DNA of 64,000 nt, from positions 32,001-96,000 of the forward strand of contig JAWODC010000036.1 in assembly GCA_046483495.1 (NCBI GenBank). Reading direction: 5' to 3'. The DNA comes from Desulfobacterales bacterium. GTDB taxonomy: Bacteria; Desulfobacterota; Desulfobacteria; Desulfobacterales; UBA5616. Both the position numbers and the translations under genes were made by a program. Shown here in pieces: positions 2,826-56,642 of the stretch; positions within the stretch are counted from its first letter, which is position 1, and the number at the start of each line of letters is the position of its first letter. The notes below the pieces were generated by a model, which worked only from the letters and a program-made list of their open reading frames with translations, did no database searches and had not been told where the DNA came from.

Positions 2826-3236
2826 CTTGCCCTTCCTTCCGCTGCTTCTCGGCATGCGAAACGACCATAAGGTGCTTCTTTTTCATATTCTAAAAAAAAT
2901 AGTGAAGCTTTTTCAGGTGTCAAGATGCGATGAGTACTGTTTCGGACCCAAAACGCATTTTCGTGCCTGAGGCCTCTTGATTCACAAAGCCGGGAAACAG
3001 AGCGAAAACGAAGTCTACGATGCCAAAACAGCCCGAAATGCGTTTGTTTTTCTTGCCAATGTTTATCCGTTGAGGTATTGATGTGCCTTACCTTTCAATA
3101 AACCGCGCGGATGGCCAAGCGGGGGCATGTGCACATTTGATGAGCATCTTTCTACACGATTAACTGCTTATCACGATTCTTGTTTGACACCACGGATGCA
3201 TACCTCCCCCAATGGTGCGTTGTATGTCTCTTTTGA

Positions 3237-3278
3237 CCGCCTGAACTAAAGCGAATTTTCTCATTTTCAGATGGACCT
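3237..3278 (-). repeat. Terminal fragment of the ~142-bp palindromic dispersed repeat (subfamily A)
   Basis: ccgcctgaactaaagcgaattttctcattttcagatggac closely matches the reverse complement of the first ~45 nt of the copy at 29965; followed by TA. Confidence 0.7.
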
Positions 3279-15010: not shown

Positions 15011-15152
15011 GTGCCCACCCGGAAATGAGAAAATTCGATTCCGTTCAAGGCAGCCGGGAAATATTTACCGCAGGAATACATTGAGTATTTTGAGAATTAA
15101 AATTTTCCGGCCAACGAAGAATGGAGTGAATTAGACATTTCTGGATGTCTAG
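15011..15152 (+). repeat. ~142-bp palindromic dispersed repeat (MITE/ERIC-like), subfamily A
   Basis: Aligns end to end with the copies at 29965 and 49859; imperfect terminal inverted repeats; starts 3 bp after the crotonase stop codon. Confidence 0.88.
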
Positions 15153-29964: not shown

Positions 29965-30106
29965 GTGTCCATCCGGAAATGAGAAAATTCGCTTCAGTTC
30001 AAGGCGGCCGGCCAATTTTAACCGCAGGAACAGCTGAGTATTTTGAGGATTGAAATTTTCCGGCTAACGAAGAAATGAAGAGAATCAGCCATTTCTGAAT
30101 GGACTC
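29965..30106 (+). repeat. ~142-bp palindromic dispersed repeat, subfamily A
   Basis: Termini gtgtccatccggaaatg / catttctgaatggactc; homologous to the 15011 and 49859 copies; last base lies in the stop codon of the prmA-like gene. Confidence 0.9.
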
Positions 30107-47251: not shown

Positions 47252-47388
47252 ATTCGCCTCGATTTGGATTGAAAGCCGGAATCAGCAGGGATTAGAAAAG
47301 GGATTAAACATCAGGAAGCATTTTTGTCAACAGCAAAGTAGACGTCGAAAAGCAGAACAGGCGCTCGAAGGCTTCCATTTCAAAAAAA

Positions 47389-47447
47389 CGAAAACGCCGC
47401 TCCTGGGCCAAAAGATGCCGCCTCGAATCGAATCGGTCGGTGGCCGC
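47389..47447 (+). repeat. Right-arm fragment of palindromic repeat, subfamily B
   Basis: cgaaaacgccgctcctgggccaaaagatgccgc matches 56597-56628; ends ggccgc|TA in the usp stop codon. Confidence 0.75.
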
Positions 47448-49858: not shown

Positions 49859-50000
49859 GTGTCCATCCAGAAATGGCTAATTCGCTCCATTTCGGCGTTG
49901 GCGGGAAATTTTAATCCTCAAAATACTCAATGTATTCCTGCGGTTAAAATTTCCAGGCCGCCTTGAACTGAATCGAATTATCTCATTTCTGGATGGGCAC
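49859..50000 (-). repeat. ~142-bp palindromic dispersed repeat, subfamily A (best-preserved copy)
   Basis: 17-bp terminal inverted repeats gtgtccatccagaaatg / catttctggatgggcac with 1 mismatch; inverted relative to the 15011 and 29965 copies. Confidence 0.92.
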
Positions 50001-55875: not shown

Positions 55876-56286
55876 TCAGGCCAGTTGCTTGCCGGCGCCC
55901 GGCCCCGGTGAAACGCCGTAAATAGCATCGATTTTAAAAATCAGAGCCCCTTTCGATTTCAGCGGAAAACCGATCTTGTTTCCCCGCTCTTCGATCCATT
56001 TCGCCGTGTCCTCGTATCGCGGTCCCGAAGTTTCGATGGTTACGGTACCCTTGAGTTGATACCCTTCCTGCCCTTCCCAGAAGGTAACCGCGGCCTTAGG
56101 GTTGGACTTCAAATTGGCCGCGGTTTTGTTTAAAAACTGATCGGAAATCAGAATGGTCTCGTCATCCAGTATGCGCTTGGCGCCTACCGGCACCCCGTTG
56201 GGTGTTCCATCCTCGGTGGCCGTAATCAGAGTAACTGCAGGTACTTTGTCAAACAGTTCTTTCATGCGATCCGTCATCTTTGCCAT
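55876..56286 (-). CDS. Pyridoxamine 5'-phosphate oxidase-like FMN-binding protein
   Basis: ATEDGTPN, KTAANLKSNP, GYQLKG and PGPGAGK motifs; AGGAGG RBS. Confidence 0.85.
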   Translation of the reverse strand: MAKMTDRMKELFDKVPAVTLITATEDGTPNGVPVGAKRILDDETILISDQFLNKTAANLKSNPKAAVTFWEGQEGYQLKGTVTIETSGPRYEDTAKWIEERGNKIGFPLKSKGALIFKIDAIYGVSPGPGAGKQLA

Positions 56287-56383
56287 GCGATCAATCCTCC
56301 TTTCAACTTCAACTAATCAACACGTATTTTGGGTCCAACATCTCTTTCCCAAGCGCCAAACCCGCGAAAACGACTTTTCAATA

Positions 56384-56438
56384 CCCATCACCTCTTACCA
56401 TAACCTATCACCTATTACCCAACAACCATTACCCATAA
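56384..56438 (+). repeat. Degenerate heptamer tandem repeat (~8 units, CCYATHA-like)
   Basis: cccatca cctctta ccataa cctatca cctatta cccaaca accatta cccataa. Confidence 0.7.
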
Positions 56439-56449
56439 CCCGATTTTTT

Positions 56450-56497
56450 AAACGCCGCTCCGGGCCAAAAGATGCCGCTTCCGAATCACATCGTCCC
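56450..56497 (+). repeat. Right-arm fragment of subfamily B repeat abutting the full copy
   Basis: aaacgccgctccgggccaaaagatgccgcttccg (56450-56483) is identical to 56600-56633. Confidence 0.85.
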
Positions 56498-56642
56498 GTG
56501 GCCGTCCGGAAGCGGTAGGTTTTGGTCCGGAGCAAGGCATGAGCCCTTTTTGGAACCGCAGGAATAGTTTAAACTATTTCGAGGATTCCAAAAAGGCGAA
56601 AACGCCGCTCCGGGCCAAAAGATGCCGCTTCCGGACGGCCAC
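56498..56642 (+). repeat. 145-bp palindromic dispersed repeat, subfamily B
   Basis: Perfect 18-bp terminal inverted repeat gtggccgtccggaagcgg / ccgcttccggacggccac; same central and bulge motifs as subfamily A. Confidence 0.92.

Follow-up and report, generated by a model that had tools for sequence, protein, structure and literature searches.

Bacterial MITEs that fold as long hairpins form a sort of their own, in which the relevant passages of Delihas 2011 (PMC3184786) place ERIC, Correia/NEMIS, RUP, Chunjie and bcr1. Other MITEs have been attributed to the IS5 family, namely ATR of Neisseria meningitidis and BrickBuilt and MITEPgRS of Porphyromonas gingivalis; according to the parts of PMC4596501 that deal with them, IS5-family ISPg elements and their MITEs have GAGACC-type ends, and Table 2 of that paper prints the inverted repeat of ISNme1 (IS5 family). 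The D. autotrophicum genome paper, in the passages concerned, mentions only a high repeat number (PMC2702500), and the relevant sections of a 2024 MITE review name no Desulfobacterota MITE (PMC10969869). Our literature search, with ISfinder not covered, found no published description of the Desulfobacterota family reported here.

We describe this family from a 64,000-nucleotide stretch of a Desulfobacterales genome (the window), from the remainder of that genome and from its relatives. The repeat is a MITE, gene-less, non-autonomous and of the long-hairpin sort. To the explanation as a whole, in which a DDE transposase would act in trans on this MITE and its core is selected among source copies, we assign a probability of roughly 0.8.

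Copies in the window, the genome and the phylum

Four full copies of a ~142-bp repeat that forms a hairpin over its whole length are present in the window, together with three fragments of it. Each of the copies named in an earlier note on this DNA is real, lying where the note had placed it or a few bases away. The subfamily B full copy (56498..56642, + strand) is a 145-bp imperfect palindrome that matches positions 1-142 of our nhmmer model; its termini are GTGGCCGTCCGGAAGCGG / CCGCTTCCGGACGGCCAC, its core runs from ACCGCAGGAATA to TATTTCGAGGATT and its predicted fold has an energy of -101.9 kcal/mol (z = -14.9). Subfamily A is represented by full copies at 49859..50000 (- strand; fold z = -9.5, model match), the best preserved of the window, with flanks TATTTA and TGTTAT in element orientation, and at 29965..30106 (+ strand, ending at 30105/6; fold z = -5.5, model match). 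The stretch at 15011..15152 (+ strand; z = -4.3) is likewise a copy of subfamily A, but its right terminus is degenerate and the model match stops at 15147. A left-arm fragment of subfamily A at 3235..3276 (- strand, model positions 3-45) is 91% complementary to 29967-30001, and a right-arm fragment of subfamily B lies at 47377..47424 (+ strand; contig C34 79377-79424) and is 89.6% identical to element positions 88-134. When compared with dinucleotide shuffles, the full copies of the window fold as a single long hairpin with z = -4.3 to -14.9, and in the ACCGCAGGAATA-carrying + orientation none of 200 shuffles is as stable as the real copy. The features ascribed to both subfamilies, a GTG start, CAAGGC at nt 36 and a common core ACCGCAGGAATA...TATTTYGAGGAT, are all seen in the copies. 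CAAGGC had also been called unpaired; the position of the motif stands, its unpaired state does not, as the predicted folds leave just the AA within it unpaired.

The third fragment, at 56450..56497 (+ strand), is a partial right-arm module with a 14-nt linker and adjoins the B copy on its upstream side; 56450-56483 is an identical copy of 56600-56633. It is no stray piece, since by eye a similar right-arm stretch lies just 5' of six of the nine full B copies inspected. Such partial right arms stand at 56450-56497 of the window and 5' of B copies on contigs C4, C11, C18, C37 and C58, and they end in ...GCCGCTTCNGAAT plus about 14 nt, the normal terminus being replaced. It seems that either the B source copy is a unit of ~195 bp, combining a truncated copy with a full one, or B inserts beside older B ends. 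Close by, window positions 56219-56424 show a high metatranscriptome contig depth (110-178 in one run); they correspond to the 5' end and leader of a minus-strand 136-aa ORF (55876-56286) that has a strong ribosome-binding site. A C/A-rich ACC-repeat tract (56380-56440) lies further upstream of this gene, and a similar tract is found upstream of the B copy on contig C37.

A search of the host genome (4.19 Mb, 94 contigs) with an nhmmer profile of 143 model positions gave 245 distinct family loci, of which 146 span at least 120 of the 143 positions, 59 span 60-119 and 40 are shorter still; their summed length is 27,097 bp. The near-full copies cluster into three main subfamilies of 65, 37 and 9 members, plus divergent singletons, and not into the two first proposed: A is the 65-copy subfamily and B the 9-copy one. 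By crude ORF calls, under which 87% of the genome is ORF, 116 of the 146 near-full copies are intergenic. Copies lie 10-15 kb apart, in both orientations, on most contigs and form no cassette arrays. The element contains no ORF and is too short for a transposase gene. On contig C45 two inverted family ends lie 1182 bp apart (69853-71034) around a 273-aa ORF that by eye resembles enoyl-CoA hydratase/crotonase; the arrangement could be a composite, gene-carrying unit or a coincidence.

A BLAST search with one copy as query covered 40 further genomes sampled from the order; 24 of them have the family, and nearly every matching genome belongs to a different taxonomic family. Identity across the order is 90-100% in the centre of the element (query positions 32-120, and most of all 49-95), whereas the arms differ. 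In a scan of one genome for each species, the exact core pattern occurs in at least 124 stretches. Among the matches listed, almost all records come from Desulfobacterales, Desulfobacteraceae, Desulfococcaceae, Desulfatiglandaceae, Desulforegulaceae, Desulforhopalus, Desulfonema, Desulfatitalea, 'Deltaproteobacteria' MAGs or Desulfobacterium sp. N47; a few short core-bearing contigs binned outside those groups are taken to be mis-binned. An even sample of the phylum had the exact pattern in 45 of 401 genomes (own genome included), with the highest counts being 137 + 145 matches in one genome and 107 + 84 in another; the reversed pattern, used as a control, gave 0 matches in every listed genome of this sample. 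Judged by terminus counts, genome G036 has about 160 copies (171 + 150 matches) and G155 about 235 (229 + 242 matches). In the phylum sample, copy numbers go up to about 280 per genome. The loop motifs, whose failure to hold genome-wide would have counted against the earlier note, are conserved throughout the own genome and phylum-wide. Since the family makes up 0.65% of the host genome and reaches roughly 160-280 copies elsewhere, it is liable to break assemblies and seed rearrangements and could serve as a strain-typing marker. Its hosts, sulfate-reducing Desulfobacterota, are an environmentally important group.

Fold, termini and candidate transposases

The stems of A and B differ by paired changes: pair 11-133 is AT in 58, GC in 29 and GT in 36 cases, and pair 54-90 is TA in 64 and GC in 45 of the genome copies. 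RNAalifold returned no structure for all 146 near-full copies. The structure tests used a consensus fold and a cleaner alignment of 75 copies (138-146 bp), of which the window supplied 4 and other genomes 71; for this alignment RNAalifold gave 30 pairs across the inner ~107 nt, 20 of them with changes on both sides. Paired cells amount to 95.6% versus 86.8% in column shuffles (0 of 500 reach 95.6%) and the covariation score is 0.299 versus 0.132, a control that overstates independence because the copies are related; the number of pair types and a second control are independent of kinship, and in the latter, with partner columns slid by 1-3, at most 53% of cells are paired and the score is at most 0.078. 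The outer stems were left out of the covariation test because the terminus types are offset by one column, but they too change in pairs within the own genome. The pair table and the 75-copy test thus bear out the claim that the stems change through compensatory substitutions while the motifs between them stay fixed.

Folding depends on the strand. In 73 of the 75 copies the ACCRCAGGAATA-bearing strand is more stably folded than its complement, with mean energies of -59.4 versus -44.7 kcal/mol (RNA parameters) or -29.3 versus -24.5 kcal/mol (DNA parameters), because G-U (G-T) pairs conserved on the former correspond to A-C on the latter. This fits the earlier suggestion of selection on a single-stranded form; we know of no established role for such strand asymmetry in DDE transposition. 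Within subfamilies, variability in the apical loop (5-7 nt, model positions 70-74) is 2-3 times that of the remaining element, which would fit either a loop that lies exposed when a single strand folds or arms that are corrected from a template. Nearly all copies of the complete genome G041 differ from one another in the apical loop.

The element is bounded by terminal inverted repeats (GTGTCCATCCAGAAATG / CATTTCTGGATGGACAC and equivalents), whose pairing the predicted folds and the pair table both show. Ends of the window copies are of GTG type, written GTGYCCATCCRGAAA, GTGTCCATCC or GTGGCCGTCC. Target-site duplications were tested on the 84 of 146 copies with intact ends, with shuffled left-right pairings as control. 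The 6-mer flanks are identical in 11 of the 84 and differ by at most one mismatch in 25, compared with means of 0.8 and 4.4 (maxima 4 and 12) in shuffled pairings; of the lengths 2 to 10 tested in the own genome, none besides 6 is enriched. The flank logo reads T-A-n-Y-Y-A and the duplication is TAnnTA, with varied hexamers (TATTTA, TACTTA, TAGAGA, TAACTA, CGGGTA and others). A genome of the same genus (G001) has kept both genes that flank the 49859-50000 copy, separated by a 116-bp spacer without the element; intergenic divergence (about 75% identity) accounts for the lack of a base-precise empty site there. Further evidence of movement comes from genome G039, in which six core-less 46-bp elements (loci L225-L230), each consisting of two termini and a short common spacer, occupy six different sites, with perfect 6-bp duplications in four and duplications one base off in two. 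Dispersed in this way, they indicate that the termini suffice for transposition. This 'mini-MITE', present at six or more sites of G039 and at each with a 6-bp TAnnTA duplication of its own, has spread without the core. Short GAGACC-type derivatives (36-56 bp) are heterogeneous, lack clear duplications and are probably independent internal deletions. The earlier idea of a non-autonomous mobile element is therefore upheld by duplications in the own genome, in other genomes (see below) and at the G039 derivatives.

The duplications also bear on the likeness to enterobacterial ERIC/IRU elements that the earlier note had suggested. ERIC has a similar architecture, an imperfect palindrome of about 130-140 bp that is intergenic and multi-copy, and the likeness is architectural alone: a blastn search with one copy found nothing at E <= 1 among 20,395 E. 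coli records, the host phylum differs, and the relevant passages of PMC3184786 give 5'-TA-3' at both ERIC termini versus the 6-bp TAnnTA found here. We regard membership of that family as having next to no probability.

Across lineages, a near-invariant core (ACCRCAGGAATA-loop-TATTTYGAGGATT) is common, whereas termini and duplication length differ. In other genomes, at least four types of terminus flank this core. The GTGTCC type (terminus GTGTCCATCCAGAAATG) has exact 6-mer duplications in 6 of 16 copies and the GTGCCCGAAC type (terminus GTGCCCGAACGAAAACC) in 8 of 15, the latter mostly TAnnTA-like by eye; the GAGACC type (GAGACCTTTGAAAAATG) has exact 5-mer duplications in 18 of 37 copies, and the GAGCCA type (GAGCCACTTTCAAAACG) exact 4-mer duplications in 12 of 18. 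For one transposase family, it would be unusual to produce duplications of 4, 5 and 6 bp within a superfamily. Additional GC-rich hairpins of 30-50 nt, placed at fixed positions inside the element, lengthen some copies to about 190 bp (seen in L021, L099, L115, L122 and L132). In G155 (T4 lineage), the left and right termini of nearly all listed copies differ at one fixed position (GAGCCAC... versus GAGCCAG...), which would mean a conserved C-C mismatch in the terminal stem.

Could the element be SINE-like, a rod-shaped RNA copied into DNA by a reverse transcriptase, with the 'inverted repeats' being simply the base of the rod? G-U pairs favour RNA, and the termini covary like other stems and differ between lineages. 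Somewhat more of the partial copies retain the 3' end than retain the 5' end (42 versus 24); since a fragment of half a palindrome fits either strand, this count is unreliable. Both ends are precise, however, the duplication length is fixed per terminus type, the core-less 46-bp derivatives are still mobile and one terminus type is the inverted repeat of a DDE insertion sequence (see below), so that we consider a retro-element highly improbable.

No autonomous element with GTG-type ends was found in the window or the own genome, in agreement with the earlier statement that the window has no cognate transposase. A terminus-pair scan of the own genome gave eight pairs, 746-1897 bp apart, that are mutually dissimilar and whose ORF listing holds no evident transposase; its repeats of 250 bp or more lie mostly at contig ends. 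Besides chance-level half-motif matches, the core motif is absent from the own genome outside family loci. Two IS5-like transposases had no tblastn match there, and the lone DDE_Tnp_1 gene of this genome (C25) was dismissed as a partner since its ends differ. Nor did inspection by eye of the listed terminus matches of G005 and G039 reveal an autonomous element of GTGTCCATCC type. The complete genome G041 (about 25 copies) yielded no autonomous GAGACC-ended element: its solitary GAGACC ends are truncated fragments, and all 13 core matches lie in MITE copies. A recurring CAGATCTTTGAAAAA in G041 was rejected as a partner end, as it is internal to an unrelated insertion sequence of 1.6 kb whose duplications measure 13-14 bp. 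That sequence is one of two unrelated multi-copy insertion sequences without MITE ends at G041 loci L135-L138 and L145-L156, the other being 1.8 kb, IS4-like and bounded by CATAGGTGATCGG. In the sampled part of G155 (about 235 copies) no autonomous element was found either; the solitary ends sampled are fragments or lie at contig ends. MAGs commonly lose insertion sequences, and because they often lack them the missing partner is weak evidence.

For sister lineages a candidate emerges. IS5/IS1182-like insertion sequences (DUF772 + DDE_Tnp_1) with GAGACC/GAGCC-type ends are present in Desulfobacterales genomes, and one of their transposases passes NCBIfam transpos_IS5_4 (167 bits, cut-off 140). 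The element at L239 of G015 is 1323 bp long (left end GAGACCTTTGCAA, right end GAGACCTTTGCAAAATA); that at L160 of G036 is 1391 bp and has GAGCCTCTTGCAAAA at each end, a 15/15 match to the terminus of the L102 MITE. Related elements were found in G061, G091, G062 and G155. The interiors of these elements bear no likeness to the arms or core of the MITE, which is therefore no simple deletion derivative. Of the two IS5-like transposase queries, the first was found in 9 of 151 genomes and the second in 6 of 41, and 20 of the 25 MITE-bearing genomes of the relatives set are without the second; these transposases are too rare for an association with the MITE to be demonstrable. None of the IS5-like ends seen matches the start of the window copies, GTGYCCATCC or GTGGCCGTCC. 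From the anatomy of the element we infer a DDE transposase acting in trans; for the GAGACC-type relatives the enzyme would be an ISNme1-like IS5-family transposase, and only for such sister lineages can a partner be named with some confidence.

The whole-length hairpin, its conserved bulges and strand-specific fold, and the combination of a hypervariable apical loop with conserved stems, are also what might be expected of an element that moves as a folded single strand, by means of an HUH/Y1 transposase (as IS200/IS605 PATEs and REPIN-RAYT) or a tyrosine recombinase (as integron attC and folded phage att sites). Orientation relative to GC skew is also weakly biased (81 versus 55, p = 0.03 uncorrected). 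This replication-strand bias is too weak for use, and far below the much stronger one of IS200/IS605. HUH/Y1 and tyrosine recombinase systems work without duplications, whereas those found here are fixed in length and variable in sequence; the copies are dispersed in both orientations and not in cassette arrays, and one terminus type equals the inverted repeats of an IS5-family DDE element. We consider movement as a folded single strand very unlikely.

Probable selection on the core among source copies

Divergence from the subfamily consensus, core versus arms, is 15.2% versus 10.1% in A, 6.1% versus 6.9% in B and 4.1% versus 4.1% in C. Within subfamilies the core decays as fast as the arms, and individual insertions are therefore without host selection for the core. 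Even decay, the mobility of core-less derivatives and the conservation of the core, taken together, place selection on the core among the source copies. Probably it is selected there because it raises the rate of propagation, in that source lineages which keep the core would leave more descendants. We speculate that the core, a central ~47-80-nt stem-loop, acts as a one-strand hairpin, of DNA or RNA; it may instead nucleate cruciform extrusion or serve as a site for a host factor. That the core is more conserved than the termini is not predicted for a plain TIR-only MITE. We infer that it is not strictly needed for transposition and not needed by the host.

The earlier note had also considered a mobile structured RNA, and much about the element would suit a non-coding RNA or cis-acting RNA element with a defined structure, which the host keeps as a regulator, stabiliser or processing site and whose mobility is secondary: the strong covariation, the G-U-rich and strand-specific fold (73 of 75 copies), a core that is near-invariant across families and phylum, and optional GC-rich hairpin modules at fixed sites, as in many RNA families. 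Service to the host is contradicted by an orientation that is random with respect to flanking genes (37 versus 32 in tandem contexts, no bias) and by the loss of the core of inserted copies at the same rate as the arms. The target-site duplications and proliferating core-less derivatives are those of a DNA transposon. Rfam gave no match to the window at gathering scores, and for one copy at E <= 10 chance-level matches alone. In Logan contigs of four salt-lake metatranscriptome runs, core words have a depth of 157-1340 versus 2-26 for neighbouring genes, with the loose ends being other arm types; this depth says nothing on expression, because repeat depth sums copies and organisms and may include DNA, and so cannot separate expression from copy number. 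A host RNA is in our estimation improbable. Readings of the core as a promoter, terminator, IHF site or short ORF were dropped after inspection by eye, since the bases that each would require vary between lineages.

Within the preferred explanation of a MITE whose core is selected among source copies, a bolder version can be proposed, in which the core is a portable functional module that swaps its inverted repeats, rides different transposases and enhances its own propagation in cis via a folded single strand (DNA or RNA). A core that swaps its ends would account for the four or more terminus types and for duplications of 4, 5 and 6 bp. We hold this version to be doubtful; if true, it would amount to a 'transposition booster' or mobile structured nucleic acid, a thing not known from bacterial MITEs. 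One core with several ends and with core-less derivatives is a natural experiment on what, besides inverted repeats, spreads a MITE. The family is also a caution for RNA-motif discovery, as strong covariation and strand-specific folding can arise from a transposon without host selection on its copies.

Comparison with known systems

The commonest lineage of the superfamily, the GAGACC type, has the terminus GAGACCTTTGCAAAA, which equals the inverted repeat of ISNme1 in 15/15 positions (as printed in the table of PMC4596501). The window copies differ from this kind in their GTGTCCATCC/GTGGCCGTCC termini and 6-bp TAnnTA duplications, the match to IS5-like elements being limited to sister lineages. 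ATR, BrickBuilt and MITEPgRS resemble the present family in that all are non-autonomous and have just the termini in common with their presumed parent; the conserved core of the present family is absent from the IS5-like elements inspected. In contrast to IS200/IS605-type PATEs or REPINs (no duplication, subterminal hairpins, Y1 transposase), the present family has duplications, and unlike integron attC sites, which stand in one-orientation cassette arrays beside an integrase, its copies are dispersed in both orientations.

ERIC/IRU elements (about 127 bp, Enterobacteriaceae) are likewise intergenic, multi-copy, MITE-like palindromes that fold over their whole length. ERIC has a conserved centre, and longer and shorter internal variants were reportedly described by Wilson and Sharp in 2006. 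The present family has no sequence similarity to ERIC/IRU, belongs to another phylum and has 4-6-bp duplications where the relevant passages on ERIC give TA flanks (PMC3184786). The same source describes two further parallels. Chunjie, a MITE of the former deltaproteobacterium Geobacter uraniireducens, also forms a very stable hairpin but is 178-235 bp long with 21-bp inverted repeats and 9-bp direct repeats (PMC3184786), compared with about 142 bp and 4-6-bp duplications here. The bcr1 element of the Bacillus cereus group (Firmicutes, about 155 bp) is mobile-element-like with 5-bp direct repeats and likewise keeps a double-stranded RNA-level fold by compensatory changes (Delihas 2011, PMC3184786); in this respect it is the closest precedent among mobile repeats. 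A core that exceeds the ends in conservation, a strand-specific fold and several terminus types and duplication lengths are unusual for a MITE, but they do not set the element apart from the known MITE kind.
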